Under the pieces are notes generated by a model. The model did no database searches, was not told the origin of the DNA, and was given only the letters and a program-made list of their open reading frames with translations. From a virus (lineage: Duplodnaviria > Heunggongvirae > Uroviricota > Caudoviricetes): a stretch of 11,394 bases of DNA. Of this stretch, positions 1 through 11,394 are shown piece by piece. How positions within the stretch are numbered: the first letter of the stretch is position 1; every line of letters begins with the position of its first letter. The stretch lies in IMG/VR virus record IMGVR_UViG_2585427657_000001; one strand, given 5' to 3'. The translations under genes and the position numbers were made by a program.

Positions 1-228
1 ATGCGTGAAGTATGGACAAGCACAGCAGCGAACGAGGAAGGATTCGAGCCGGACGTAATAGAGGCGGCACTTGCCCACGTCGACACCAACGAAGTTAGAC
101 GGGCATACAACCGGAGCAACTACATAGAAAAACGCATCGTGCTGATGCGCTGGTGGGGCGAATTTGTCGAGGCTGCGGCGACGGGCGTAACCCTCGCCAG
201 TGGTAAAAGGGGTATCCGAGCCGTGTAG
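1..228 (+). CDS. int: P4-family tyrosine integrase, C-terminal fragment; the 5' part of the gene lies upstream of the window
   Basis: Translation ...DVIEAALAHVDTNEVRRAYNRSNYIEKRIVLMRWWGEF... resembles the conserved C-terminal catalytic region of P4/CP4-57-type integrases (LAH...VRxAYNR...Y motif). Frame is open to position 1 and stops at 226-228. Confidence 0.8.
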   Translation: MREVWTSTAANEEGFEPDVIEAALAHVDTNEVRRAYNRSNYIEKRIVLMRWWGEFVEAAATGVTLASGKRGIRAV

Positions 229-305
229 CTGTACAGAAAACCAGTAAAAACTACGAAAACCATGTAAAACCGTCGTATAATTGCATCAAATTTAACGACA
301 AGGCC

Positions 306-557
306 GTGAAACATGAAACCGTTAAGATGCAAAAAAATATCAGATGCAATTGCGACGGGCTGCAACTGGCCCTGATGGTTCAGCATGAATTTTGGTCAAC
401 CTACGATCCGGAGGACAGAACGACGGCCCCATCAAAAAAACAGGTAGTAGATTTTCTGGTATCCCGTGGCGCTTCCAGAAATCTGGCGGTAAGTATTGAT
501 AAGGTCGTACGTCCGGCATCTATGAAGATCGGAGGCAGGCCCAAAAAATGGCGGTAA
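306..557 (+). CDS. Hypothetical small protein (83 aa with GTG start at 306; alternative ATG at 327)
   Basis: ORF directly followed by a rho-independent terminator at 567-591. No recognisable motif and start codon uncertain. Confidence 0.3.
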   Translation: MKHETVKMQKNIRCNCDGLQLALMVQHEFWSTYDPEDRTTAPSKKQVVDFLVSRGASRNLAVSIDKVVRPASMKIGGRPKKWR

Positions 558-566
558 CAATCCTGG

Positions 567-591
567 AAGCGGCAGAAATGCCGCTTTTTTT
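567..591 (+). terminator. Rho-independent terminator
   Basis: 8-bp stem AAGCGGCA / TGCCGCTT with GAAA loop, followed by a T-run (TTTTTTT). Confidence 0.55.
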
Positions 592-620
592 ATAATTCCA
601 TTTCAAATCATCAATATAAA

Positions 621-720
621 AACGGTGTATACCGTTTAAAAACGGTGGGAACTGTTTTTACCCATATCCGATGATTTACCGTATTTGTCACCGGAATACA
701 CCGGATTCACAAGGTAAATC
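621..720. promoter_or_regulatory. Repeat-rich region upstream of alpA (candidate operator/promoter)
   Basis: AAACGGT-gtat-ACCGTTT hairpin-like inverted repeat (622-639); direct repeat AAAAACGGTG twice; tandem CACCGGA(A/T)T repeats (689-708); 8-bp inverted repeat GATTTACC (673-680) / GGTAAATC (713-720) ending 3 nt before the alpA start. Confidence 0.3.
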
Positions 721-723
721 ACG

Positions 724-930
724 ATGGAAGCAATCAGAAAAATTATCTTTCGCCAGGAAGTAAAAAAAATTATCCACATCAAGGCAGACAGCACGCTGCA
801 AAGCATGATCAACGCCGGAGAATTTCCGCAGGGTTTTCGCGTTGGTTTACGCCGTCGCGGATGGTATGAGGATGATGTGTTGGCCTGGCAGAAAGAACGC
901 GAACAGGAAGCACGCGGAACGGCTGCTTAA
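724..930 (+). CDS. alpA: AlpA-family DNA-binding regulator (prophage CP4-57 regulatory protein family; excisionase-like HTH)
   Basis: 68-aa product; segment ...STLQSMINAGEFPQGFRVGLRRRGWYEDDVLAWQ... fits the AlpA pattern (S-T-I-Y...G-x-F-P-x-P-x-K-L-G-x-R-x-V-x-W...E-I-x-x-W). Position right after int is typical of P4-like and PICI elements. Confidence 0.75.
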   Translation: MEAIRKIIFRQEVKKIIHIKADSTLQSMINAGEFPQGFRVGLRRRGWYEDDVLAWQKEREQEARGTAA

Positions 931-1114
931 CGGGTATCACAGATATGACAAACACGAAAAAAGCGGCCCCGATATGGAGCCGCCTTTCTGAACAATTAAC
1001 CCGCTGCGCCTTATGTGTATATGATCCCAAACATAAGCACGGGGATGATAGCCGCTATCAAAAAGTAACGGGTATTTTATCAAAAAAGTAACGGGCGGCT
1101 GGTGGGCAATGCAA

Positions 1115-1288
1115 TCAGTCTGGTTCAGTTCGTTGCCATACCTGCAATGAGCGCTTTTCCCTGTATTCTTTAAGGAATTGCTCAAGGGCAAAAGCACATG
1201 GCGCGAATCTTTCTGATTCATGCTCTATCTTTCTGCGCCGTCTTTTCCGTGCCGGTGATAATGTTTTGGTCAATTCTTTATCGGTCAT
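1115..1288 (-). CDS. Hypothetical small basic protein (57 aa, MTDKELTKTLSPARKRRRRK...)
   Basis: Minus-strand ORF about 55 bp downstream of the 1346-1651 regulator gene on the same strand, with an AGGA about 7 nt before the ATG at 1288. No homology recognised. Confidence 0.25.
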   Translation of the reverse strand: MTDKELTKTLSPARKRRRRKIEHESERFAPCAFALEQFLKEYREKRSLQVWQRTEPD

Positions 1289-1345
1289 TGTGTTGTCCTG
1301 CATAGCAATGCGCCGTAATACCTTACACCACGGCGCTGATGGTGA

Positions 1346-1651
1346 TTACTCTGGTTCTTTGGTCTTGCGGCGCTGGAGTTCTTCACGTGCGACAGTGACG
1401 AGCTGCCCGATCTCCTCGGCGGCTTTGATTCCGAGTTTTTCCACCTGCGCCAGTGCATCGTGCGAAGAAATCAGGGGGTTTTCTCCGCTTCCTTCTGCCT
1501 GGCGGCGGGCGATTTCACCGCGCATGGCGGTTACTATGAATCCGGCGTTGCTTTCACCGTCCAGTTTTACGGATTCCATGCCTTCAATAACATCATGCGG
1601 GATCCGAGCTGTCAGTGATTGTGATTTTGCGTTTTTTGAACCTGTAGCCAT
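1346..1651 (-). CDS. Small DNA-binding regulator, ribbon-helix-helix (Arc/MetJ-like) pattern at the N-terminus; candidate island repressor
   Basis: Start ATG at 1651 preceded by GAGAGGA (better than the upstream ATG at 1666). N-terminal SLTARIPHDVIEGMESVKLDGESNAGFIVTAMRGEIARR fits strand-helix-turn-helix of RHH proteins. Divergent from the small-ORF/primase operon. Confidence 0.55.
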   Translation of the reverse strand: MATGSKNAKSQSLTARIPHDVIEGMESVKLDGESNAGFIVTAMRGEIARRQAEGSGENPLISSHDALAQVEKLGIKAAEEIGQLVTVAREELQRRKTKEPE

Positions 1652-1672
1652 CTGTAATCCTCTCAATGAAAG

Positions 1673-1749
1673 TGTAAGACAATATACACATAAAAAGTCT
1701 TACATAAAAGCATTGACATGTAAGCCACCTATAAATAAAGTTACTTACA
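1673..1749. promoter_or_regulatory. Divergent promoter/operator region: two inverted-repeat pairs and a candidate sigma70 promoter
   Basis: Perfect 8-bp inverted repeat TGTAAGAC (1673-1680) / GTCTTACA (1697-1704) with 16-nt spacer; second pair TGTAAG (1719-1724) / CTTACA (1744-1749); TTGACA (1713-1718) -N17- TAAAGT (1736-1741) reading rightward and overlapping the second pair. Confidence 0.45.
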
Positions 1750-1847
1750 CCTTGTTAATGCAAGGTGCAGAAACGACGAAACCCCGCACTGTAGGAGCAG
1801 TAACGGGGCTTCTAACCACCAACGATAGCAAGATTATCGAGGCAGCT

Positions 1848-2048
1848 ATGAGAAATTATACCATACACCCGCAAGGGCGGGACTCGTACAACCTGAATAA
1901 ATACATCTGGCGTTTTATCGCCCTGAGCACGGCACAACCGCGCGTGATTACCATCGAGGCCACCAGCGAACAGGAAGCGCGTCAGCAATCTCCGGCTGGC
2001 TGCGTGATGGTATTTGCTGCCCGTATTCGTCAGGGGGTAGGCTTATGA
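1848..2048 (+). CDS. Hypothetical protein (66 aa), first gene of the small-ORF/primase operon
   Basis: ATG at 1848 with GAGG 6 nt upstream; stop overlaps the next start (ATGA at 2045-2048). The longer ORF 1266-2048 is antisense to the regulator gene in its 5' part and is not supported. Confidence 0.4.
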   Translation: MRNYTIHPQGRDSYNLNKYIWRFIALSTAQPRVITIEATSEQEARQQSPAGCVMVFAARIRQGVGL

Positions 2049-2275
2049 GCCAGGAAATCACACTACAACAGGCAGCAGAACGCGCCCACCAAATCGAAGT
2101 TATTTGCGCACTGGCAGAGGATTACCCTGGCATGATGACCGACAGCGAATCAGGGGCAATCATCGGCTTACTTAAACGCCTTAGCGGTGAGGTCTGCGTA
2201 TTCCTGAGCGATGAACAGGAAAGAAGAACGCTTATTTCTAACGAAAAAAAATGCGGAGGGGTACATGTGCAATAA
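2045..2275 (+). CDS. Hypothetical protein (76 aa)
   Basis: ATGA overlap with the upstream ORF; part of a chain of coupled small ORFs. No homology recognised. Confidence 0.5.
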   Translation: MSQEITLQQAAERAHQIEVICALAEDYPGMMTDSESGAIIGLLKRLSGEVCVFLSDEQERRTLISNEKKCGGVHVQ

Positions 2276-2486
2276 AACCACACCGGACGCAGCAGCCGCC
2301 GCGCTCACTACGCTGATGCACGCGCTTATCGATATTGAATGCACTGCAGAGCTTGCGCAGGGAGAAGAACAGAAAGACCGGACACAGTTCGCCCTGGAAT
2401 GTATCCGATACATCGCAACACGGTCGCTGAATGACGCTAAAAATATTCTTGTTGCTGATTGTGAAAATGGGGGGGGTTATGCGTGA
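2265..2486 (+). CDS. Hypothetical protein (73 aa from ATG 2265)
   Basis: GGAGGGG ending 3 nt before ATG 2265; overlaps neighbours by 11 and 8 nt. The ORF track starts at 2211, but 2265 has the better ribosome-binding site. Confidence 0.45.
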   Translation: MCNKTTPDAAAAALTTLMHALIDIECTAELAQGEEQKDRTQFALECIRYIATRSLNDAKNILVADCENGGGYA

Positions 2487-2700
2487 TGATCGTTTTAATT
2501 CCCTGAAACAGGAATTTTCCGGCGTTCCTGATGATGCGGCTGATGCGCTTTCGTCAATGCCAGAACTTATTAGAGCGGCTTTTTTCTTACTTTCCACGAG
2601 AGAATATAAATCAACGGGGCTTGATGTACTGAATATCGCCGCCGATTATGCTGATTTCGTGACAGAGGTTATTTTAAGAAAAACGACGGACGGGGATTAA
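2479..2700 (+). CDS. Hypothetical protein (73 aa from ATG 2479)
   Basis: G-rich Shine-Dalgarno before ATG 2479; overlaps the upstream ORF stop. The ORF track start at 2431 would overlap the previous gene extensively. Confidence 0.45.
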   Translation: MRDDRFNSLKQEFSGVPDDAADALSSMPELIRAAFFLLSTREYKSTGLDVLNIAADYADFVTEVILRKTTDGD

Positions 2701-2701
2701 T

Positions 2702-2935
2702 ATGCGTGATATTTACCACGAAACAATAGACCGCGCATTTCTTGCACTTTCTCACAGTGAAAACATGCTGGAAATATTGCGCATATGGCTTGAAACACTT
2801 GGCGACAATGAACGCGACAAACAAAAATCAAGAATTGCCACGGCATTAATAACGCTTCTTGAGCCTGTAATAATGGAACTGCAAGAAATAGATCTATTGC
2901 ACGATAGATATAAAGAACAGCACACCGGAGAATAA
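2702..2935 (+). CDS. Hypothetical protein (77 aa)
   Basis: Starts 2 nt after the upstream stop, with GGGGA upstream. No homology recognised. Confidence 0.5.
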   Translation: MRDIYHETIDRAFLALSHSENMLEILRIWLETLGDNERDKQKSRIATALITLLEPVIMELQEIDLLHDRYKEQHTGE

Positions 2936-2940
2936 AAATA

Positions 2941-3240
2941 ATGAAACTTAAATATTCTGGCTTAACTGCCAGTGGCAACACTCACCCTAAATTTACGCGC
3001 GGCGATATTTACCGCGACCAGTACGGCGGCACGGTAATGATTAAGGGCGTGGCGGGACGGTGCGTAACTTACCGCCGTGAAGGTTACGAATATGATTGCG
3101 TGATGCCTGTTTATCAGTTCCGGCGTGATTTTTCTCTGGTACAGACCGCGCCGCATAACGTGCCCACCAGCAACGCCAGGGCACGGGCAAACATCCAGAA
3201 GCTGAAAACCATGATTAACGGATTCAGGGGTAAAAAATGA
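2941..3240 (+). CDS. Hypothetical protein (99 aa), translationally coupled to the primase
   Basis: GGAGAA Shine-Dalgarno before ATG 2941; stop overlaps the primase start (ATGA at 3237-3240). Confidence 0.55.
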   Translation: MKLKYSGLTASGNTHPKFTRGDIYRDQYGGTVMIKGVAGRCVTYRREGYEYDCVMPVYQFRRDFSLVQTAPHNVPTSNARARANIQKLKTMINGFRGKK

Positions 3241-4991
3241 AACTGGCACCGAACGTAAAACAGCAGTCACGCGGCATAAAACACAAAGGAACAGAAGTCA
3301 TTATTTTTGCGGGTAGTGATGCCTGGGCACACGCGAAACAATGGCAGGAACATGATGCGCGTATGGCCGGAGATAATGAGCCTCCTGTGTGGCTTGGGGA
3401 GCAGCAGTTATCAGAACTGGATAAGCTGCAAATTGTGCCGGAAGGCAGAAAATCCGTGCGCATATTCAGGGCCGGATATCTTGCGCCAGTAATGATAAAG
3501 GCGATTGGTCAGAAGCTGGCGGCGGCAGGCGTACAGGATGCAAATTTTTACCCTGATGGTATGCACGGTCAGAAGGTGGAGAACTGGCGCGAATATCTGG
3601 CCCGTGAGCGCCAGAATCTTTCTGATGGTCTGGTCATTGAGCTTCCGGTAAAGCAAAAGGCGCAACTTTCGCAGATGGCGGACAGTGAGCGCGCGCAGCT
3701 GCTTGCCGATCGCTTTGATGGCGTTTGCGTACATCCTGAAAGTGAAATCGTTCACGTATGGCGCGGCGGGGTATGGTGTCCGGTCAGCACAATGGAACTT
3801 AGCCGCGAAATGGTGGCGATCTATTCAGAGCACAGGGCCACTTTCAGCAAGCGCGTAATCAATAACGCCGTGGAAGCGTTAAAAGTTATTGCCGAACCAA
3901 TGGGCGAGCCGTCCGGCGATTTGCTGCCGTTCGCCAATGGTGCGCTTGACCTGAAAACGGGGGAATTTTCCCCGCACACGCCGGAGAACTGGATCACCAC
4001 GCACAACGGCATTGAGTACACGCCACCAGCACCAGGGGAGAACATCCGCGATAACGCGCCAAACTTTCATAAATGGCTTGAGCACGCAGCCGGAAAAGAC
4101 CCGCGCAAGATGATGCGTATATGTGCCGCGCTGTACATGATTATGGCGAACCGGTACGACTGGCAGATGTTTATTGAGGCCACCGGAGACGGCGGGAGCG
4201 GTAAAAGTACATTCACACACATAGCCAGCCTTCTGGCAGGGAAACAAAACACGGTAAGCGCTGAAATGACATCGCTTGATGATGCTGGTGGGCGTGCGCA
4301 GGTTGTCGGGAGTCGTCTTATCGTCCTGGCAGACCAGCCGAAATATACAGGCGAAGGAACGGGCATCAAGAAAATCACGGGCGGCGACCCCGTGGAAATT
4401 AACCCGAAATATGAAAAGCGTTTTACGGCGGTAATCAGGGCGGTGGTGCTGGCAACCAATAACAATCCGATGATATTCACCGAACGGGCCGGAGGTGTGG
4501 CACGTCGTCGGGTGATATTCCGGTTCGATAACATCGTAAGCGAGGCAGAAAAAGACAGGGAGCTACCGGAAAAGATCGCGGCTGAAATCCCTGTCATTAT
4601 CCGCCGCTTGCTGGCGAACTTTGCCGACCCTGAAAAGGCACGGGCTTTACTCATTGAACAGCGTGACGGTGATGAAGCACTGGCAATAAAGCAACAGACG
4701 GATCCGGTTATTGAGTTTTGCCAGTTCCTGAATTTTCTGGAGGAAGCACGCGGCCTGATGATGGGCGGCGGTGGCGATTCAGTGAAGTACACGACCAGAA
4801 ACAGCCTTTACCGCGTCTATCTGGCGTTTATGGCGTACGCAGGCAGGAGCAAACCGCTAAACGTAAATGACTTTGGCAAGGCTATGAAGCCAGCCGCGAA
4901 AGTTTACGGACATGAATATATTACGCGGAAAGTTAAAGGAGTAACGCAGACTAACGCAATAACAACAGACGATTGCGACGCGTTTTTATAA
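3237..4991 (+). CDS. Replication initiator: primase/helicase of the phage-plasmid P4 (alpha) / PICI Pri-Rep type
   Basis: 584-aa protein with Walker A P-loop GDGGSGKST and a following hydrophobic-Asp segment (SRLIVLADQP) typical of D5/P4-alpha-like primase-helicases. Sits between alpA and an iteron array as in satellite replication modules. Confidence 0.8.
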   Translation: MKLAPNVKQQSRGIKHKGTEVIIFAGSDAWAHAKQWQEHDARMAGDNEPPVWLGEQQLSELDKLQIVPEGRKSVRIFRAGYLAPVMIKAIGQKLAAAGVQDANFYPDGMHGQKVENWREYLARERQNLSDGLVIELPVKQKAQLSQMADSERAQLLADRFDGVCVHPESEIVHVWRGGVWCPVSTMELSREMVAIYSEHRATFSKRVINNAVEALKVIAEPMGEPSGDLLPFANGALDLKTGEFSPHTPENWITTHNGIEYTPPAPGENIRDNAPNFHKWLEHAAGKDPRKMMRICAALYMIMANRYDWQMFIEATGDGGSGKSTFTHIASLLAGKQNTVSAEMTSLDDAGGRAQVVGSRLIVLADQPKYTGEGTGIKKITGGDPVEINPKYEKRFTAVIRAVVLATNNNPMIFTERAGGVARRRVIFRFDNIVSEAEKDRELPEKIAAEIPVIIRRLLANFADPEKARALLIEQRDGDEALAIKQQTDPVIEFCQFLNFLEEARGLMMGGGGDSVKYTTRNSLYRVYLAFMAYAGRSKPLNVNDFGKAMKPAAKVYGHEYITRKVKGVTQTNAITTDDCDAFL

Positions 4992-5004
4992 TTTGTTGCA
5001 ATGG

Positions 5005-5232
5005 CTGTCTACCCTGTCTACCTGAGTAAAGAAAAATACATTTAATTCAGTGCATTAAGTTAGGTAGATAGCCTTTTTTTACTGTCTACCCACTATCTAC
5101 CCTCTCTACCTGATTTTACCTGAATCAGACAGGGAGGTAGACACGGGGTAGATAGTGGATAAAAGCACTCTACCCCGCTGAAAGCCGCGCCATTACTGGC
5201 ATGAGGGCCACTAAGGTAGATAAGGTAGACAA
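5005..5232. repeat. Iteron array; candidate replication origin
   Basis: Eleven copies of a 9-mer with core TCTACC (CTGTCTACC, CTATCTACC, CTCTCTACC and complements GGTAGATAG, GGTAGACAC, GGTAGACAA) in both orientations at 5005-5013, 5014-5022, 5063-5071, 5082-5090, 5093-5101, 5102-5110, 5136-5144, 5147-5155, 5166-5174, 5215-5223, 5224-5232, with an AT-rich stretch at 5023-5060, directly downstream of the primase gene. Confidence 0.7.
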
Positions 5233-5279
5233 GGGGAGGCACAACTCAAAACTTTTTAAACGAGGGGGTAAAAATAAAT

Positions 5280-5558
5280 ATGCACACTTCAGGGAAATTT
5301 AATAAATCACTCAAAAAACGCAGAGACAGAACAGAACCGAAATATCGCGCGTTAGACATGACAGAGCACGCTTTAAAGGTGGCAATCAGAACGATAGACC
5401 GACACGTAGGGGAAGGATACGCGAAGGAACATCCCGACCTGATAAGCGCATTCATGACCACAGCAGCGGCAAACTTTGCCACGCTGACAGAACGGGAGAT
5501 TGCCGAAGCGGAACAGGTAACAACCATCAACGTTAAAACCGGAGAGGTGGAATCATGA
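5280..5558 (+). CDS. Hypothetical protein (92 aa)
   Basis: Strong Shine-Dalgarno GAGGGGG before ATG 5280; stop overlaps the next start (ATGA at 5555-5558). No homology recognised. Confidence 0.55.
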   Translation: MHTSGKFNKSLKKRRDRTEPKYRALDMTEHALKVAIRTIDRHVGEGYAKEHPDLISAFMTTAAANFATLTEREIAEAEQVTTINVKTGEVES

Positions 5559-5997
5559 CAGCACAGATAGCCGCTTACGGGCGGCTGGTGGACGACCCGC
5601 AGGTAAAACAGACCAGCAAGGGCACACCGATGACGCTGGCGCGTATGGCGGTCCCCCTTCCGTGCAGCCAGGCAGATGACGGAACGGCGACGATGTGGTT
5701 ATCCGTCCTGGCATTTGGCAGACAGGCCGAAGCACTGGAAAGGCACCGCAAGGGTGAACTCCTGAGCGTGGCGGGCATTTGGTAAGCAGGCCGGGTAACA
5801 TGCAGATCAGCCAGTGGACTGGGCAGAACGGAGAAACGCGGCAGGGCTGGCAGGTTATCGCAGACAGTGTAATCAGTGCGCGAACGGCGCGACTGGGCGG
5901 CAAAAAAGGTCAACAGGGCCAGGCTACTGACGCGCTGAACAGGGCAAAACAACAGGCGGGGAATGATGATCCGTACGGGGATAACATACCGTTTTAA
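5555..5997 (+). pseudogene. ssb: Single-stranded DNA-binding protein (SSB)-like gene interrupted by a frameshift (frame change near 5777-5782)
   Basis: N-terminal ORF (5555-5785) ...TMWLSVLAFGRQAEALERHRKGELLSVAG resembles the SSB OB-fold (E. coli ...[28 protein letters not shown]). The downstream frame (ATG 5800 to 5997) continues with MQISQWTGQNGE... and ends DDPYGDNIPF, like the SSB acidic C-terminal tip (DDDIPF). Adding one T to the TTT run at 5778-5780 restores a continuous reading frame. Confidence 0.5.
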
Positions 5998-6012
5998 GCG
6001 ACGAGTGACAGA

Positions 6013-6035
6013 AGCCGGAGCAATCCGGCTTTTTT
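6013..6035 (+). terminator. Rho-independent terminator after the SSB-like gene
   Basis: Stem AGCCGGA / TCCGGCT with GCAA loop followed by TTTTTT. Confidence 0.6.
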
Positions 6036-6085
6036 ACGGGTCCTCCTGGCGGGGTGGGCCTGAACACGGGGCGGGAGGCGCGGAA
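6036..6085 (+). other. Degenerate cos-like remnant (third copy of the cos-associated repeat)
   Basis: GGGTCCTCCTGGCGGGGTGGGCC...ACGGGGCGGGAGGCGCGG parallels the 8502-8551 segment (GGGTCCTTCCCGGAATATGGACCC GTTACG GGGCGGCGACCT CGCGG), but the cosN 12-mer is mutated (GGGCGGGAGGCG). Confidence 0.4.
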
Positions 6086-6210
6086 AAAAGCGCATTTTTG
6101 TGATTTTATCGTCATCATCATCATGAGCGTAATTTATTGTTTTTAATTGTTTTGATGCAAAAAAGATGATGGTTGTGGTTAATTTTCGTTCGACATCTTT
6201 GCAGGCAGAT

Positions 6211-6275
6211 AGCCGGAGCAATCCGGCTTTTTTAAAAAAAGCCCGATAAGGTCAGAGGTGGCTTATCGGGCTTTT
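6211..6275. terminator. Tandem terminators: a second copy of the AGCCGGAGCAATCCGGCT hairpin, then a hairpin flanked by an A-run and a T-run
   Basis: 6211-6233 is identical to the 6013-6035 hairpin plus T-run; 6234-6275 is AAAAAAA GCCCGATAAG ... CTTATCGGGC TTTT. Confidence 0.55.
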
Positions 6276-6352
6276 GCATATGAGGCTTTTTGGTGCACTG
6301 ACACACATGATCGGGATAATCATTTCATAATTTGCAACGCAACTCAACATCA

Positions 6353-6401
6353 TTGCACAAAATGCAATCATGATTATAATCAGAGCTGGATGAACATCCA
6401 G
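6353..6401 (+). promoter_or_regulatory. Candidate promoter of the capsid operon with overlapping dyad operators
   Basis: TTGCAC (6353-6358) -N16- TATAAT (6375-6380); inverted repeat ATTGCA-caaaa-TGCAAT (6352-6368) over the -35; 16-bp near-palindrome CTGGATG-AA-CATCCAG (6386-6401) at the predicted transcript start; AAGAGGAA ribosome-binding site before ATG 6437. Confidence 0.5.
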
Positions 6402-6436
6402 TTATGATTTTTTAAGTCAAAGAGGAATTTCTTACT

Positions 6437-6643
6437 ATGGCTGAAGAGAAAAAAGGCGGTGTTTCGGTGTACATAAGCCCCGACATCGTGAAGGCGCTCA
6501 AGGAACGCCACCAGCAGAACGTAAAAGCAGGCATTGCGGCAGGACTTGATCCGCTGGCGATGGTTGAGCCGTCAACAGGCTGGCAGGTACGCTCCTATTT
6601 ACGCGCGGCGCTGGGCATAAATCAGACTCATGGGGGTGAATAA
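6437..6643 (+). CDS. Hypothetical protein (68 aa), translationally coupled to the major capsid gene
   Basis: Good Shine-Dalgarno; TAATG stop/start overlap with the capsid gene at 6641-6645. N-terminal VSVYISPDIVKALKERH could be a ribbon-helix-helix motif (weak). Confidence 0.5.
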   Translation: MAEEKKGGVSVYISPDIVKALKERHQQNVKAGIAAGLDPLAMVEPSTGWQVRSYLRAALGINQTHGGE

Positions 6644-7698
6644 TGGCAGTCAAAGCAATGGCACTTAACACACACCAGCTTTTCGCGTACCTGAATCGCG
6701 AGGATATTGCGGAATTTAAATTTAGTCCGCTGTTTACCGCGCTGTTTTTCCCGAACGTGGCGACATTCAACACGCAAAACATCATGCTGGATACCCTGGA
6801 CATTGAAGAAGTCACCATGTCGGCGTTTTGTTCGCCTATGGTGGGTAGCCAGGTTCAGCGCGATAAAGGGTACGAAACCAGCACGATTAAACCTGGCTAC
6901 ATGAAGCCAAAGCACGAAATCGATCCAACGAAAACCATCATGCGCATGGCTGGAGAAGATCCGGCACAGCTTAACGACCCTACCTATCGCCGTATGCGCC
7001 TGATTACTGGCAATATGCGCCGCCAGATAAACGCCATAAAAGCGCGCGTGGAATGGCTGGCGGTAAATGCGGTAACGACCGGAAAAAACATCATTGAGGG
7101 CGAAGGCATAGAGCGCTATGAAATCGACTGGAAGATACCGGAAAAAAACATCATAGAGCAGGCCGACGGGAAAAAATGGTCAGAGCAGGACAAAGAAACC
7201 CACGATCCAATCTATGATATCGAACTATACGCCGATCAGGCTGGTTGCCCCGCAAACGTCATGATTATGGGCGTTGAGGTATGGCGAACGTTACGCAGCT
7301 TTAAAAAATTCCGTGAGCTGTACGATCTTTCCCGTGGTTCAGAGTCCGCCGCAGAGCTGGCCTGTAAAAACCTGGGCGAAGTGGTGAGCTTTAAAGGCTA
7401 TCTGGGCGATATTGCCCTTATCGTCTATTCCGGCAAATACACTGACAGCGACGGCACAGAAAAATATTTCCTTGATCCTGATTTGCTGGTCCTGGGCAAC
7501 ACCAACAACAAAGGGCTGGTGGCCTATGGTGCGATTATGGATCAGGAAGCGGTAAGAACAGGCGCAACGCAAAACATGTACTACCCGAAAAACTGGATTG
7601 AGGACGGCGATCCGGCGATTGAGTACGTGCAGACGCACAGCGCACCGCAGCCGGTTCCGGCAGATATTCGCAAATTTGTTACCGTCAAAATTGCTTAA
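6643..7698 (+). CDS. Major capsid protein, phage lambda gpE family
   Basis: 351 aa; multiple blocks match lambda gpE as recalled: FKFSPLFTALFF (lambda FKFDPLFLRLFF), KPGYMKPKHEIDP (TPGYVKPKHEVNP), DPTYRRMRLITGNMR (DPAYRRRRIIMQNMR), WSEQDKETHDPIYDIELYA (WSKRDKSTYDPTDDIEAYA), LGDIALIVYSGKY (YGDVAIVVYSGQY), YYPKNWIEDGDPA (RYPKNWVTTGDPA), C-terminal FVTVKIA (FVSVQLA). Confidence 0.9.
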   Translation: MAVKAMALNTHQLFAYLNREDIAEFKFSPLFTALFFPNVATFNTQNIMLDTLDIEEVTMSAFCSPMVGSQVQRDKGYETSTIKPGYMKPKHEIDPTKTIMRMAGEDPAQLNDPTYRRMRLITGNMRRQINAIKARVEWLAVNAVTTGKNIIEGEGIERYEIDWKIPEKNIIEQADGKKWSEQDKETHDPIYDIELYADQAGCPANVMIMGVEVWRTLRSFKKFRELYDLSRGSESAAELACKNLGEVVSFKGYLGDIALIVYSGKYTDSDGTEKYFLDPDLLVLGNTNNKGLVAYGAIMDQEAVRTGATQNMYYPKNWIEDGDPAIEYVQTHSAPQPVPADIRKFVTVKIA

Positions 7699-7709
7699 CG
7701 GGGGATTCT

Positions 7710-8045
7710 ATGGACACTCCATACATTGAGTTATTTGCAGGCAGTCAGCAGGTATCCACGACGCTGGTACATTTTGCCGCTGATGCTGGCGTTATTCAGG
7801 AATTTACCCCGCTGATGCTGGCGGACAATGGCGAGTTTAAGCCGTGGGATGGTCAGGAATCTGGCAAGGCTGTTTATCTGACTTCGTACCTCGTGGACAC
7901 GTCAAAGCAGAAATCAGCACAGTGTTACAAGACGGGGATATTCAATATTGCCGCCGTTAACTGGCCTGAGAGCGTCGACACCGATGCGAAAAAATGCGCC
8001 GCCTTTGCGGGTTCTGGCGTATCCGTTCAGCCGCTGGCCCGATAA
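7710..8045 (+). CDS. Head decoration protein, phage lambda gpD family
   Basis: 111 aa; TPLMLADNGEFKPWDG (lambda TPLMLDTSSRKLVAWDG), CYKTGIF...NWPES (FYKSGTF...LWPEA), KKCAAFAGSGVSV (KKRTAFAGTAISI). Size matches gpD (110 aa). Confidence 0.8.
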   Translation: MDTPYIELFAGSQQVSTTLVHFAADAGVIQEFTPLMLADNGEFKPWDGQESGKAVYLTSYLVDTSKQKSAQCYKTGIFNIAAVNWPESVDTDAKKCAAFAGSGVSVQPLAR

Positions 8046-8057
8046 GCAGGGGGAACG

Positions 8058-8471
8058 ATGGCAACGAATGAAAGCATCATGGCGCTACCGCTGGCGAGTA
8101 AATTTAAAGCCGAAGCGCGGGCAATGGCTGACAGAGGTTTATCAACCTACGAGGCCGTATATCAACTCAACAAACTGGAAGAGCAGGACAAGCCGCGCGC
8201 TGATGCGATTATGGCGCTTCATGAGCATAAAGACTATCAGCCGCTGTTGCGTGCAATGGCAAACGTGCCTTGTATCGATGTTGATACGGCTAAAAACATC
8301 CTGAACATGACCATAGAGCAGGAACGCCCGAAGGTTGCACCAGAGCTTACCGCAGCCTTTGAAAACTTTATGGACATGCACAGCCCACAAACCGTATCAG
8401 CTGGCATGGCATACGATGGCAGAAACCCAGGCGATGACGGCGACATCGATCGCATACTGAAAACCATCTGA
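8058..8471 (+). CDS. Hypothetical protein (137 aa), last gene of the capsid operon, directly upstream of cos
   Basis: ORF with AGGGGGA upstream, followed by a terminator at 8478-8500. No motif recognised; position suggests a packaging or morphogenesis accessory role. Confidence 0.55.
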   Translation: MATNESIMALPLASKFKAEARAMADRGLSTYEAVYQLNKLEEQDKPRADAIMALHEHKDYQPLLRAMANVPCIDVDTAKNILNMTIEQERPKVAPELTAAFENFMDMHSPQTVSAGMAYDGRNPGDDGDIDRILKTI

Positions 8472-8477
8472 GACAAG

Positions 8478-8500
8478 GCCGGAGAAATCCGGCTTTTTTT
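8478..8500 (+). terminator. Rho-independent terminator after the capsid operon
   Basis: Stem GCCGGA / TCCGGC with GAAA loop and a 7-T run; variant of the hairpin at 6013-6035 and 6211-6233. Confidence 0.6.
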
Positions 8501-8501
8501 A

Positions 8502-8564
8502 GGGTCCTTCCCGGAATATGGACCCGTTACGGGGCGGCGACCTCGCGGTTTTTCGCTATTTATG
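8502..8564 (+). other. cos site 1: palindrome GGGTCC-N12-GGACCC, then lambda-type cosN (GGGCGGCGACCT at 8532-8543) and lambda-like proximal flank
   Basis: Sequence GTTACG GGGCGGCGACCT CGCGGTTTTTCGCTATTTATGA matches the lambda cohesive-end region as recalled (GTTACG GGGCGGCGACCT CGCGGGTTTTCGCTATTTATGAAAATTTTCCGG). No lambda-like R-site motifs are recognisable downstream. Confidence 0.7.
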
Positions 8565-8637
8565 AGCTTTTTCAGGGGGGTGGTGGTGGTTTTGTTGTTT
8601 GCTCTATCTTTATGAATGAAAAGGGAAAGATGCAAAC

Positions 8638-8675
8638 AATACACCAACCTGAAGCAGTAATTAAGTTGGTGTATT
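8638..8675. promoter_or_regulatory. Perfect 11-bp inverted repeat AATACACCAAC / GTTGGTGTATT (16-nt spacer) between cosN and the terS start; candidate cosB recognition element or operator
   Basis: Seen directly: 8638-8648 and 8665-8675 are exact reverse complements, ending 1 nt before ATG 8677. Confidence 0.4.
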
Positions 8676-8676
8676 A

Positions 8677-9219
8677 ATGAAATCGCACCTGATGAACAAA
8701 AAAAACATGGCGAAAAGCTGCCGTGTAAGTGCGACAGCGTTCGACAAGTGGGGAGTGACTCCCGTTGAACGTAAAGGCCGTGAGGCGTTTTACGATGTTG
8801 CCAGCGTGATAGACAATAGGGTTAACAATGCAATTAGCCAGCTTACAAACGACAAAGGCGATATTGATGATGATGAACTCTTACGAGTCAGGATCAGATT
8901 ACTGACAGCACAGGCGGAGGCGCAGGAACTTAAAAACGAGCGCGATCGCGGTGACGTGATTGATACTGAGTTTTGCCTGTACGCGCTTTCAAAGCTGGCG
9001 AGTCAGATTTCATCAATCATGGACAGCCTCCCGCTTACTATGCAAAGGAGCTTCCCACAGATTACCCCCGCCATGCTGGATAGGCTTAAAAGGGAAGTGG
9101 TTAAAGCCTGTAATGCCAGTGCCAGAGTTGCCGACAACCTCCCACAGATACTGGCTGATTACTTGAAAGAAACAACCGGAAACGTACCGGAAAAGTTGCT
9201 ACAGAAGAAAGGCGAGTAA
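8677..9219 (+). CDS. Small terminase subunit, lambda Nu1 family (start may be ATG 8692, giving MNKK...)
   Basis: LTAQAEAQELKNERDRGDVIDTEFCLYALSKLASQISSIMDSLPLTMQRSFPQI matches lambda Nu1 LTRAQADAQELKNARDSAEVVETAFCTFVLSRIAGEIASILDGLPLSVQRRFPEL; C-terminal LADYLKETTG matches LLSEYIEQSG; N-terminal MNKK matches Nu1 MEVNKK. Gene sits immediately downstream of a cosN, as in lambda. Confidence 0.85.
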   Translation: MKSHLMNKKNMAKSCRVSATAFDKWGVTPVERKGREAFYDVASVIDNRVNNAISQLTNDKGDIDDDELLRVRIRLLTAQAEAQELKNERDRGDVIDTEFCLYALSKLASQISSIMDSLPLTMQRSFPQITPAMLDRLKREVVKACNASARVADNLPQILADYLKETTGNVPEKLLQKKGE

Positions 9220-9239
9220 CAGACGCGCAATTATTGAAC

Positions 9240-9441
9240 AAAACTGAGAAACGACATGAAAGCGTCATAAATCGCCATTTTAGATGATTACCGTGTCGTT
9301 TCTTTTTATTGTGTATCTATTTAAAAACAAATAGTTATGTTCGAGAAGTACCGACATGCTTTTTCCAGAAAAATTTTCATAAACAGATAAAACCCGCGAG
9401 GTCGCCGCCCCGTAACGGGTCCATAATTCCAGGAAGGACCC
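9240..9441 (-). other. cos site 2 (inverted): lambda-type cosN (minus strand of 9399-9410) with lambda-like cosB (R3/I1/R2/R1-like segments) and upstream GGGTCC/GGACCC palindrome
   Basis: Minus strand reads GGGTCCTTCCTGGAATTATGGACCC GTTACG GGGCGGCGACCT CGCGGGTTTTATCTGTTTATGAAAATTTTTCTGG ...ACTTCTCGAACATAACTATTTGTTTTTAAATAGATACAC...AAAGAAACGACACGG...CATGTCGTTTCTCAG, which parallels the recalled lambda left end (TTCTTCGTCATAACTTAATGTTTTTATTTAAAATACC, AAAGGAAACGACAGG, CTGTCGTTTCCTTTCTC). Confidence 0.65.
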
Positions 9442-9475
9442 GACGACACCAGACAATCAGAACGATGGGTGCACA

Positions 9476-9757
9476 ATGACAGAAGCCGAAATACTGGGAT
9501 TAATCCGCCGTGCTGGTGGAATCAGCCAGCAGACTGACGAACAGGCCACGCAGCCGGACAGCGTGACAGCCGAAAATTATGCGCGTGTTGTTGCTGAGGT
9601 GATGCGCCGTGATGGTATCCAGCTTAATGATGTGGATATGCGCAACATACGGATCCGCGTTCTTGAAATGCTGGCCTACAATCGCCGCGTGGCACTGTAT
9701 CGGGAAACGGAGAAAATTACATACCACTGGAAGAAGCCGGAGCGGTTGCGGCGGTAA
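9476..9757 (+). CDS. Hypothetical protein (93 aa)
   Basis: ORF between cos 2 and the att repeats with protein-like composition. Weak ribosome-binding site; no homology recognised. Confidence 0.4.
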   Translation: MTEAEILGLIRRAGGISQQTDEQATQPDSVTAENYARVVAEVMRRDGIQLNDVDMRNIRIRVLEMLAYNRRVALYRETEKITYHWKKPERLRR

Positions 9758-9758
9758 C

Positions 9759-9927
9759 TGGTTGATATTTTCGAAATTCGCCAGCGGCGAACATCGGGGA
9801 AACCAGCCTAACCCGTTGATATTTTCGGGAACCTCAAATTGAGGAGGTCGGAAACATAACCCGTCATATTCTGGATGCTGATAATTACCACGCAGCCCAT
9901 TAAGGCCTAACCCGTTGATTCTTTCGG
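9759..9927 (+). repeat. Direct repeats of a roughly 20-bp motif (CCTAACCCGTTGAT(A/T)(T/C)TTTCGG) at the island/chromosome junction; candidate attR and integrase-binding repeats
   Basis: Copies at 9760-9773 (partial), 9807-9828, 9856-9874 (degenerate) and 9906-9927; the 3' part of the motif (TCTTTCGG) recurs inside the phoQ 3' end at 9941-9948. Confidence 0.5.
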
Positions 9928-9933
9928 ACATAT

Positions 9934-11394
9934 TTATTCATCTTTCGGTGCAGAATGCTGGCGACCAAAAATCACTTCCATCCGCGCACCGCCCAGCATG
10001 CTCTCTCCGGCGACGATTTTACCCTCATATTGCTCGGTGATTTCGCGGGCTACCGCCAGCCCCACACCTTGCCCAGGGCGTAAAGTATCAACCCGTTGAC
10101 CACGGTCGAAAATGACCTCTCGCTTGCTTAATGGAATACCGGGGCCATCATCCTCGACCACAATATAGAGATGCTCGTCGGTTTGCCTTGCAGAAATTTC
10201 GACAAATTCGAGGCAATATTTACAGGCATTATCCAGCACATTACCCATCACCTCGACAAAATCGTTCTGCTCACCAACAAAGCTGATCTCTGGCGAAATA
10301 TCGAGAGAGATATTGACCCCTTTGCGTTGATACACTTTGTTCAGCGCCGAGGTGAGATTGTCCAACAGTGGGGCGACCGGATGCAGCTCGCGGCTAAGCA
10401 ATGTCCCGCCGCGCATACTGGCACGATGCAGGTAGTAGCCAATTTGCTGTGAAATGCGGCTGATTTGCTCCAGCATTACCGGCTCAGCATCACTGACGCT
10501 CATCTTCTCACTACGCAGAGAACGCAGCGTACTTTGCAGCACCGCCAGTGGCGTTTTCAGACTATGGGTCAGGTCGGTGAGCGTCGTACGATATTTGTCG
10601 TAACGTTCGCGTTCACTTTTTAACAGTCGGTTCAGGTTTCGTACCAGACTGGTCAGTTCTCGCGTTGTGGCTGGATTGAGCAATTCACGGTTATGTTCTT
10701 CCAGTTCGCGGACTTCTTTTGCCAGGGCTTCGATGGGGCGTAAACTCCACCAGGCGGCGACCCACAGCAGCGGGATCACTAACAGCAGATTGGCTGAGAG
10801 CACATAGATAAACCAGCTCCAGACCATATAGGAACTTTTTAGCTCCACCGGAATGGTATCCACCACCACAATGGTTAACTTTGGCATCCGCGATGTTGCC
10901 GGGTAGACGTTTACCGCCACCGAGTGGGTCATCTCCGCGTCGTCATCATCTTCCCGCACTTCCTGCAACTGTTGCTGTATCGAATGATCTCCACTCAGCA
11001 AGAGGCTGGTATCGTTAACATCCGCTTCAATTTCATGAAAACCATTCGATTTCAGCCAGTCAGGCTGGATCATCTTCATCAGCCAGGGCACGTCACGTTG
11101 CGCCCATAAAAGCTGCCCGTTCTCATCATAAATTAGTGTCATCGTGGGGCTTTGCTTGTCGATATTTTCGGGTAACTCGACATGCAACTTATTGTTTTCC
11201 CACTTCGCAAGGGTATAGAACAGATTGCTCTCGCCACGTAACAGCCGAAACGTGGTTTTATCGAAACTGACGCTATAACCGATCAGCGCAACCATTCCGT
11301 AGGCAAGCGAAAGCACCAATACTACTGCTGCCGTTGCTAACAGAAAACGTACCCGCAGCGAGAGCGGGAAAAAAAGATGCAGTAATTTTTTCAT
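9934..11394 (-). CDS. phoQ: Sensor histidine kinase PhoQ (PhoP/PhoQ two-component system), complete
   Basis: 486-aa product recognised as E. coli-type PhoQ ([68 protein letters not shown]...; periplasmic acidic patch EDDDDAEM; H-box [14 protein letters not shown]; G-box DDGPGI). Start codon is the last three bases of the window; phoP would lie beyond the right edge. Confidence 0.97.

Follow-up and report, generated by a model that had tools for sequence, protein, structure and literature searches.

The viral record IMGVR_UViG_2585427657_000001 (IMG/VR; Caudoviricetes) is a stretch of DNA of 11,394 nucleotides, referred to here at its full length as the window, which holds what its gene content identifies as a phage-inducible chromosomal island (PICI). 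The window opens with the terminal 228 nt of an integrase gene and extends to phoQ (9934-11394, minus strand), and the notable island genes are all on the plus strand. Our analysis centers on a module of four genes encoding a 68-aa protein (orf68), a homolog of the lambda major capsid protein gpE (E′), a homolog of the lambda head decoration protein gpD (D′) and a 137-aa protein, and on the gene for a small terminase subunit (TerS) that follows the module between two cos sites (Table 1).

The coat protein E′ matches the Pfam family Phage_cap_E (E = 3e-52), with PF03864 covering residues 27-349, and the ‘major head protein’ family PHROG 29 (E = 8e-110). It is 44% identical to lambda gpE over 328 aa (E = 7e-95), equals gpE in length and can be aligned with it from end to end. 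E′ is also 97% identical to a 351-aa ‘putative capsid protein of prophage’ whose crystal structure is available (PDB 3BQW) and has served elsewhere as a molecular-replacement model and fold representative. The decoration protein D′ matches the Pfam family HDPD (E = 6e-17), with PF02924 covering residues 8-103, is 36% identical to lambda gpD over 76 aa (E = 3e-13) and finds gpD and SHP-family decoration structures in PDB with E-values of about 1e-9 to 1e-12. In the module E precedes D, whereas D precedes E in lambda, in a fragment of an unrelated myovirus whose head module is of the lambda type and in the lambdoid prophages around related islands. A sequence-only reading of the window had placed E-like and D-like genes at precisely these positions (6643-7698 and 7710-8045) and had noted that their order is the reverse of that in lambda; both points are borne out by the Pfam and BLAST homologies, and its by-eye estimate of roughly 40-50% identity holds for the coat protein.

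The 137-aa protein encoded downstream of D′ is, by a profile-level but reciprocal assignment, a predicted short scaffolding protein of the Nu3 type. It matches the extreme C-terminus of PHROG 53, the family of the gpC protease and Nu3 (positions 494-567 of 583, E = 2.7e-9), and in the reverse direction residues 117-200 of lambda Nu3 match PHROG 1999, the 137-aa protein’s own family (E = 2.7e-26). Besides these reciprocal PHROG matches, the assignment draws on an intermediate scaffold of 195 aa (P0009), recovered by an exhaustive HMMER search, which scores strongly against both lambda Nu3 and the ‘head scaffolding’ PHROGs and which hhalign joins to the 137-aa family with a probability of 96.6% (E = 5e-10). 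The alignment of the two contains a pair of ‘IMxL..(E)..L(A)..(V/P)PGM/I..xAKxLL’ repeats and a common ‘FExFMxxHSPxxVxAG’ tail. Against lambda Nu3 alone the 137-aa protein gives only weak matches in pairwise BLASTP and hhalign (E = 0.06 and 0.014), and we found no match for it with tblastn in 50,697 phage records or with phmmer in PDB. Since the exhaustive HMMER search for the 137-aa family returned only 9 representatives, the family appears to be very narrow; its counterpart in E. coli CFT073, c1501, likewise has 137 aa. The name ‘phage head-tail connector protein’, used at times by NCBI for this protein, echoes in our reading the old ‘preconnector’ label of gpC/Nu3. A Nu3 identity for the fourth gene makes the module one of coat, cement and scaffold.

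The island TerS aligns with lambda Nu1 from residue 6 to residue 166 of 180, a span that takes in the C-terminal part (35% identity, E = 2e-34), but shows no similarity (E = 1.4) to RppA, the packaging-specificity protein of the prototype island EcCICFT073. The two cos sites, at 8502-8572 and 9370-9441, flank the TerS gene in opposite orientation and share a 56-nt inverted repeat. Over its first ~35 nt cos1 is the same as the left end of lambda and it diverges beyond, and the cosB region of cos2 can be aligned with lambda over ~170 nt. This layout is that of the published EcCICFT073 island, with TerS between the sites here and Rpp there. Islands of the TerS type are common at the phoQ site, for instance in O157:H7 and O145 strains. 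The sequence-only reading had seen only small flanking open reading frames (ORFs) of 68 and 137 aa beside the coat and decoration genes; both ORFs are there, but the longer one is the Nu3-type scaffold gene and the TerS gene at 8677-9219 had been overlooked.

The four module genes are tightly packed, the orf68 stop overlapping the start of the coat gene (TAATG) and the following two gaps measuring 11 and 12 nt. The hairpin GCCGGAG(C/A)AATCCGGCTTTTTT occurs three times (6014-6035, 6212-6233 and 8478-8499); the copy at 6014 closes the ssb region, and the bracketing of the capsid module by these copies makes it resemble a separate transcription unit. The order orf68-E′-D′-137-aa gene thus presents itself as a compact predicted operon bracketed by terminator-like hairpins. 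Five island variants, one of which diverges just upstream, hardly differ in the 140 nt on the 5′ side of orf68. These 140 nt include a perfect palindrome, ATTGCAcaaaaTGCAAT, at 6352-6368 with a weaker copy at 6322-6338, and a TATAAT at 6375-6380 before a hairpin with a T-run (6384-6412; z = -2.9 for the hairpin fold), which is located between this -10 element and the ribosome-binding site. The whole region might serve as an operator combined with an attenuator or with a target of antitermination. A sigma-70 consensus scan of the plus strand from 5900 to 9950 gave no promoter, and it is conservation, and conservation only, that suggests a promoter-like role for the region 5′ of orf68. Homologs of orf68 itself were found in enterobacteria only, every copy being annotated as hypothetical. 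Its AlphaFold2 (AF2) model consists of two helices (pLDDT 75) and finds no match below E = 2 in PDB with Foldseek, and the protein has no match in Pfam, NCBIfam or PADLOC. By eye orf68 had given the impression of a ribbon-helix-helix protein, which we rejected given the two-helix AF2 model and the lack of a significant fold match.

Table 1. Features of the island in the window (positions count from the first letter of the window).
Feature	Position	Strand	Remarks
Integrase 3′ end	1-228	+	99.5% match to the end of the annotated Nissle 1917 island integrase
AlpA-type regulator	724-930	+	PHROG 66 (E = 5.5e-7); PHROG 2790 (E = 3e-6)
Primase-helicase (pri-rep), D5-type	3237-4991	+	Pfam D5_N, DUF5906, Pox_D5; PHROG 864 (E = 3e-175)
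Candidate replication origin	5005-5235		Iteron-rich; directly 3′ of the primase gene
SSB gene, two ORFs	5555-5997	+	Pfam SSB and PHROG 44 match both halves
Two terminator-like hairpins ending the replication region	6212-6275	+	GCCGGAGCAATCCGGCTTTTTT at 6212 (also at 6014 and 8478); perfect 14-bp hairpin at 6237-6275
Upstream control region	6300-6436	+	Palindrome, TATAAT, hairpin with T-run, ribosome-binding site
orf68 (c1498 family)	6437-6643	+	68 aa; PHROG 3255 (E = 1e-36)
Satellite major capsid protein E′ (c1499 family)	6643-7698	+	351 aa; HK97 fold
Satellite head decoration protein D′ (c1500 family)	7710-8045	+	111 aa
Predicted short Nu3-type scaffolding protein (c1501 family)	8058-8471	+	137 aa
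Terminator-like hairpin closing the module	8478-8499	+	Third copy; 7 nt past the 137-aa ORF
cos1	8502-8676	+	cosN GGGCGGCGACCT at 8532-8543, exact; then island-specific cosB up to the TerS start
TerS, full-length, Nu1-type	8677-9219	+	180 aa; Pfam Phage_Nu1 (E = 2e-23); RppA position in EcCICFT073
cos2, inverted	9370-9441	-	cosN at 9399-9410, exact on the minus strand; cosB more lambda-like
orf93, conserved last island gene	9476-9757	+	PHROG 1561 (E = 1e-55)
att core GGACATATTT (attR)	9926-9935	+	One exact match; overlaps the phoQ stop codon

We searched for further head and packaging genes by six-frame tblastn of 12 lambda proteins against the whole window, and only Nu1, D and E gave significant matches; lambda A, W, B, C (including its protease part), Nu3, FI, FII, Z and U gave none. 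Pfam and PHROG scans of the window ORFs likewise found no portal, protease, large terminase subunit (TerL) or connector domains. The predicted set of the island is therefore coat, cement, scaffold and small terminase, without portal, protease, TerL, adaptors or tail, and the earlier observation that portal, protease and TerL are lacking between int and phoQ stands. The sequence-only reading had concluded that the helper must supply portal, scaffold, TerL and tail. This holds for portal, TerL and tail but overlooks that the island has a TerS of its own with cos sites and a scaffold-type protein: with its own Nu1-like TerS and cos the helper TerS would not be needed, and with its own scaffold-type protein the helper scaffold perhaps would not be either.

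By this gene content the island can be classified as a classical cos-type Gram-negative PICI of the EcCICFT073 family, in which helper-dependent induction, replication and high-frequency transfer have been demonstrated for EcCICFT073 only. It combines an integrase 3′ end and att core, AlpA, and a primase with an adjacent origin with a coat homolog and a TerS with two cosN; it lacks tail, holin, portal, connector and TerL genes, and its size lies in the ~8-15 kb range, with ~9.9 kb from the integrase end to attR in the window and 11.3-11.4 kb in related complete islands. The genes that set apart capsid-forming PICIs (cf-PICIs), namely their own portal, protease, head-tail adaptor/connector and TerL, were found neither by six-frame tblastn nor in the Pfam and PHROG scans. 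In place of a 144-153-aa Rpp between the cos sites, which heterodimerizes with the helper TerS, there is the 180-aa Nu1 homolog. No Pfam or PHROG family of Sid, Psu or Delta was found among the scanned ORFs, and P4-like satellites share only AlpA, primase and int in kind according to the literature. A coat homolog, as in the Ccm type, is present, and for the 97%-identical c1499 protein the published data showed neither small-capsid DNA nor a part in interference, within the scope of the size tests given below. The sequence-only reading had taken the shell genes as a departure from PICIs, but the island belongs to the prototype Gram-negative PICI family, in which capsid and terS are core components.

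The module of EcCICFT073 has been the subject of published experiments. There c1499 was named as a putative capsid protein and c1500 as a head decoration protein (Fillol-Salom et al. 2018, PMC6092414), so that the coat/decoration feature is already known from that study, from 3BQW and from the standard definition of Proteobacterial PICIs; a satellite with its own coat also has a precedent in SaPIbov5 Ccm. Deleting c1499 or c1500 neither relieved the interference with lambda nor changed transfer by the resident prophage (PMC6092414). When the genes 3′ of the origin were cloned singly in pBAD18, only c1503 (rppA) inhibited lambda and phi80 (PMC6739421), and deletion of rppA alone brought plating back almost fully. 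With c1498-c1501 swapped for cas9 or melA, phi80 transducing lysates were still obtained. Lambdoid helpers mobilize EcCICFT073 by way of its cos site, as functional cos data indicate; with the native helper no PICI-monomer DNA band was seen, and with lambda as helper the DNA packaged was of phage size. These published results show, for a module 93-97% identical to the present one, that c1498-c1501 are dispensable for transfer and are not an interference factor. Reviews and later papers accordingly describe EcCICFT073 as packaged in full-size heads despite its capsid homolog. By published account, a capsid gene is found in 21 of the 29 reference Gram-negative PICIs and is dispensable for transfer, and SatelliteFinder counts ‘capsid morphogenesis’ and terS among five core PICI components.

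These experiments bear directly on the possibility that the module is an interference device, with E′ and/or the Nu3-like protein poisoning the assembly of helper procapsids, for instance as competitors of gpNu3/gpC at the coat-binding site. Satellites often interfere via capsid assembly, and the Nu3-like protein retains the C-terminal region common to lambda gpC and gpNu3, which would suit such a competitor. We nevertheless consider this role very improbable, because lambda plaques did not come back upon deletion of c1499 or c1500, inhibition of lambda and phi80 among the cloned genes was confined to rppA, whose deletion restored plating, and a decoration protein has no obvious poisoning role.

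They bear equally on the proposal of the sequence-only reading that the island remodels capsid size, which the EcCICFT073 data do not support (no monomer band, phage-sized DNA, neutral deletions, cargo swaps). In its fuller form, E′, D′ and the Nu3-like protein would build small capsids (T<7) on the helper portal that have room for a single 11-kb genome and keep the helper genome out. A set made up of coat, cement and a shortened scaffold whose C-terminus is phage-scaffold-like does recall CpmB of SaPI1 and Ccm of SaPIbov5, and PmCI172, a PICI with a coat homolog, does form small capsids. The published size data also have a particular scope: the lambda and phi80 lysogens in the published Table 1 carried a c1499::cat island, that is, one without the coat gene, and the size test with the native helper used a tetA-enlarged island, in which the coding sequences of the module were intact. 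We considered whether the c1501::tetA construct of 2018 breaks the scaffold gene and rejected this, as the Table S6 primers place the cassette between the c1501 stop and the downstream terminator. Small capsids are nonetheless improbable in our view. The monomer band was absent with the native helper although the module was intact, and the DNA packaged with lambda was phage-sized; coat and decoration deletions neither lower transfer nor relieve interference; islands without c1498-c1501 transfer well, and authors and reviewers conclude that full-size heads are used. By our own rough volume scaling, moreover, an 11-kb unit fits only a T=3 and not a T=4 shell, and E′ has the same length as gpE, the alignment of the two running from one end to the other. 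The observation that the published size tests used coat-deleted or enlarged islands, and not intact size-neutral or TerS-type ones, is a further addition of the present analysis.

The evolutionary record of the module bears on whether it has any role at all. Of 5426 complete E. coli genomes, 597 contain the full four-gene module, with nucleotide identities of 93-100%, and among the copies that were listed or opened every one has its four genes annotated as intact. The ratio of nonsynonymous to synonymous substitution rates (dN/dS, Nei-Gojobori) of the coat gene is 0.13-0.18 in shallow and deep comparisons alike, which at about 0.15 indicates purifying selection on this gene; for the decoration and scaffold genes the ratio ranges from 0.06 to 0.7, close pairs offering too few substitutions to pin it down. 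We also identified a second satellite lineage in E. coli Z1323CEC0007, Kluyvera, Superficieibacter, Cedecea and Kosakonia that keeps E before D, so that this order is retained across two lineages and five genera. In this second lineage (L006, at 7839-10683 of Z1323CEC0007; L008; L009) the E′-D′ pair is followed by a 114-aa helix-turn-helix (HTH) protein and a 69-aa ORF, and the Nu3-like gene and orf68 are lacking. The HTH protein, which is AlpA/excisionase-like, is ~70% conserved over four genera. Between the two PICI lineages the coat proteins are 55% and the decoration proteins 54% identical, while the best phage matches among the 50,697 records reach 47% and 42% for the two coats and 43% for the decoration protein. 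Because identity between the lineages exceeds that to any phage, the E′-D′ pair is an old satellite-resident clade and not a recent capture from a helper. A scan of genome contigs gave 4 loci, which provide examples of the second lineage and of helper-embedded islands and not a census. The ~20-kb vB_EcoM-569R10 records, with 45% coat identity, were examined as possible packaged satellites and proved to be ordinary phage fragments with the order C/Nu3-D-E.

One might instead take the module for baggage, that is, for captured helper late genes, or for a backup that serves relatives residing inside a helper E gene, with no present role when the island is chromosomal. Two islands carry the second-lineage E′-D′ pair in just such a setting (L010, Cedecea sp. 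S5-13, 2936-14224; L011, Kosakonia sp. S29, 2632-14492): they sit in the major capsid gene of a helper prophage at about codon 80-82, as ‘capE’-type helper-embedded PICIs of the arrangement in the E gene described by Tommasini et al. Helper-embedded PICIs with a related E′-D′ pair at about codon 80 of helper E are in line with a backup; there is also documented uptake of late genes into the PICI ‘late zone’, and the deletions had no phenotype. We judge this explanation rather unlikely, however, since identities of at most 47% to any phage coat, against 55% between satellite lineages, do not fit a recent capture, the coat dN/dS is about 0.15, the gene order is unlike that of every phage examined, and the 597 complete genomes with the module have it mostly at chromosomal sites like that of the present island.

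On balance, the explanation that seems probable to us, if not by a wide measure, is that the region is a late (‘encapsidation’) module whose E′, D′ and Nu3-like proteins make or join normal-size lambda-type shells and are redundant with the helper coat. In such a scheme the island TerS would bind its own cosB at cos1, and its conserved C-terminal part would recruit a helper TerL of the gpA type. About four 11.3-kb units (~45 kb, 93% of the lambda length) could then fill a lambda-size head, with E′, D′ and the Nu3-like protein assembling into, or co-assembling with, normal-size shells on the helper portal and with the helper protease. The module would be a satellite-owned supply of shell proteins that is redundant with helper gpE/gpD in the laboratory, and not a size-changing device. 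In established lambda biology a decoration protein is known to act only on the expanded, DNA-filled shell; the joint retention of E′ and D′ therefore suggests that E′ probably forms real heads. On this reading E′, D′ and the Nu3-like protein would be genuine structural proteins kept by selection, and purifying selection, the missing phenotype and DNA of phage size can all be accommodated at once.

Several points weigh against shells of normal size that are redundant with the helper’s. As deletions of c1499 and c1500 have no phenotype, such shells are something that we infer; the second lineage does without a scaffold gene, and the Nu3-like gene is thus not obligatory for the role of E′ and D′; the TerS-type islands IHE3034 and 18098 were mobilized poorly or not at all in the 2018 study; and the broken ssb described below may mean that the present island copy is not fully functional.

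A related and, we think, unlikely variant is that E′, D′ and the Nu3-like protein are a working half of a capsid kit, used on the helper portal and with the helper protease, either at normal size or, with particular helpers or in TerS-type islands, at a small size. If true, the negative results in the literature would be due to redundancy with the coat of the helper and to the use of marked islands that were coat-deleted or altered in size, and islands of this family would be intermediate between classical and capsid-forming PICIs. About one in ten complete E. coli genomes carries the coat-decoration pair, which is satellite-resident and under purifying selection, and the role of this pair is the question of interest. 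What is added here is the Nu3-type identity of the 137-aa gene and the data on a satellite-specific clade and its selection.

The rest of the window is made up of the island backbone. The N-terminus of the integrase, attL and the left end of the island lie outside the window. The AlpA-type gene is co-oriented with int, and its match to Pfam Phage_AlpA (E = 0.0035) falls under the curated cutoff; among the small ORFs between it and the primase-helicase gene is one for a DUF4222 protein. The array behind the primase gene contains CTGTCTACC / GGTAGA(T/C)A units in both orientations and a 16-nt inverted repeat, and it is probably the island origin of replication, a reading supported also by its location, which agrees with that of the published PICI origin. 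When aligned with its intact counterparts in Nissle and CFT073, ssb proves to be split by a 20-bp insertion, GCATTTGGTAAGCAGGCCGG, at ~5775-5794, which is missing from the otherwise identical Nissle ssb. The inserted 20-mer is similar to a stretch that lies 64 nt upstream, in the CFT073 allele of that stretch, and ssb is annotated as frameshifted in an unrelated island too (L006). At the right end, orf93 is shared with the islands of CFT073, O157 and Z1323 (dN/dS 0.11-0.34), and GGACATATTT is the att core of EcCICFT073 at ycfD-phoQ (Table S1, PMC6092414). Three direct copies of GCCTAACCCGTTGAT(A/T)TTTTCGG (9752-9774, 9806-9828 and 9905-9927) lie just inside attR, the last abutting the att core, and these candidate repeats may be arm-type binding sites of the integrase or excisionase. 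No tRNA genes were found in the window, and an Rfam scan of its full length gave no credible RNA family.

Among known systems, the nearest well-studied relative is EcCICFT073 (Fillol-Salom et al. 2018, PMC6092414; 2019, PMC6739421), which has the identical att core beside phoQ and shares the order int-alpA-pri-ori-ssb-c1498-c1499-c1500-c1501-cos1-packaging-specificity gene-cos2-orf93. Amino acid identity to it is 97% for the coat, 97% for the decoration protein, 93% for the 137-aa protein and 94% for orf68. The two differ in the gene between the cos sites, which encodes the 144-aa RppA (c1503) in EcCICFT073 and the 180-aa TerS here, in the PerC-like gene of EcCICFT073, which the present island lacks, and in the ssb gene, broken here by the 20-bp insertion. 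The island of Nissle 1917, EcCIATCC25922, is closer still, with 99.5% nucleotide identity over 19-9928, the same TerS and a four-gene capsid module 100% identical to that of the window, but it lies at another site (yejM-tRNA-Pro) with another att core, and its ssb is intact. Near-identical island bodies thus occupy two att sites, yejM-tRNA-Pro in Nissle/ATCC 25922 and phoQ in the window.

The cf-PICIs, such as EcCIEDL933, have in common with the present island the int-alpA-pri backbone, an HK97-fold coat of their own and TerS. They add protease, portal, head-tail adaptor/connector, HNH and TerL genes and small capsids of their own, and such genes are absent here; the coat and TerS genes of PICIs and cf-PICIs form separate clades. 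The Ccm protein of SaPIbov5 (Hawkins et al. 2021, PMC8569155) comes from a cos-type satellite that likewise carries a homolog of the helper coat and neither portal nor TerL. Ccm sits at the pentons, converts prolate heads to small T=4 ones and interferes with the helper, whereas for the coat of the EcCICFT073 family neither a change of size nor interference was found. Lambda, finally, has homologs of the coat (44%), the decoration protein (36%), TerS (35%) and, at the profile level, the C-terminal region of the scaffold, and its cosN and the adjoining ~35 nt are identical to those of the island, while cosB differs. Unlike that of lambda, the scaffold gene of the island does not lie within a protease gene, and its product is shorter than Nu3 (137 aa against 201). 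The lambda order cos-Nu1-A-W-B-C/Nu3-D-E appears in the island as E-D-Nu3′-cos-Nu1′, with the head genes reversed and on the other side of cos.

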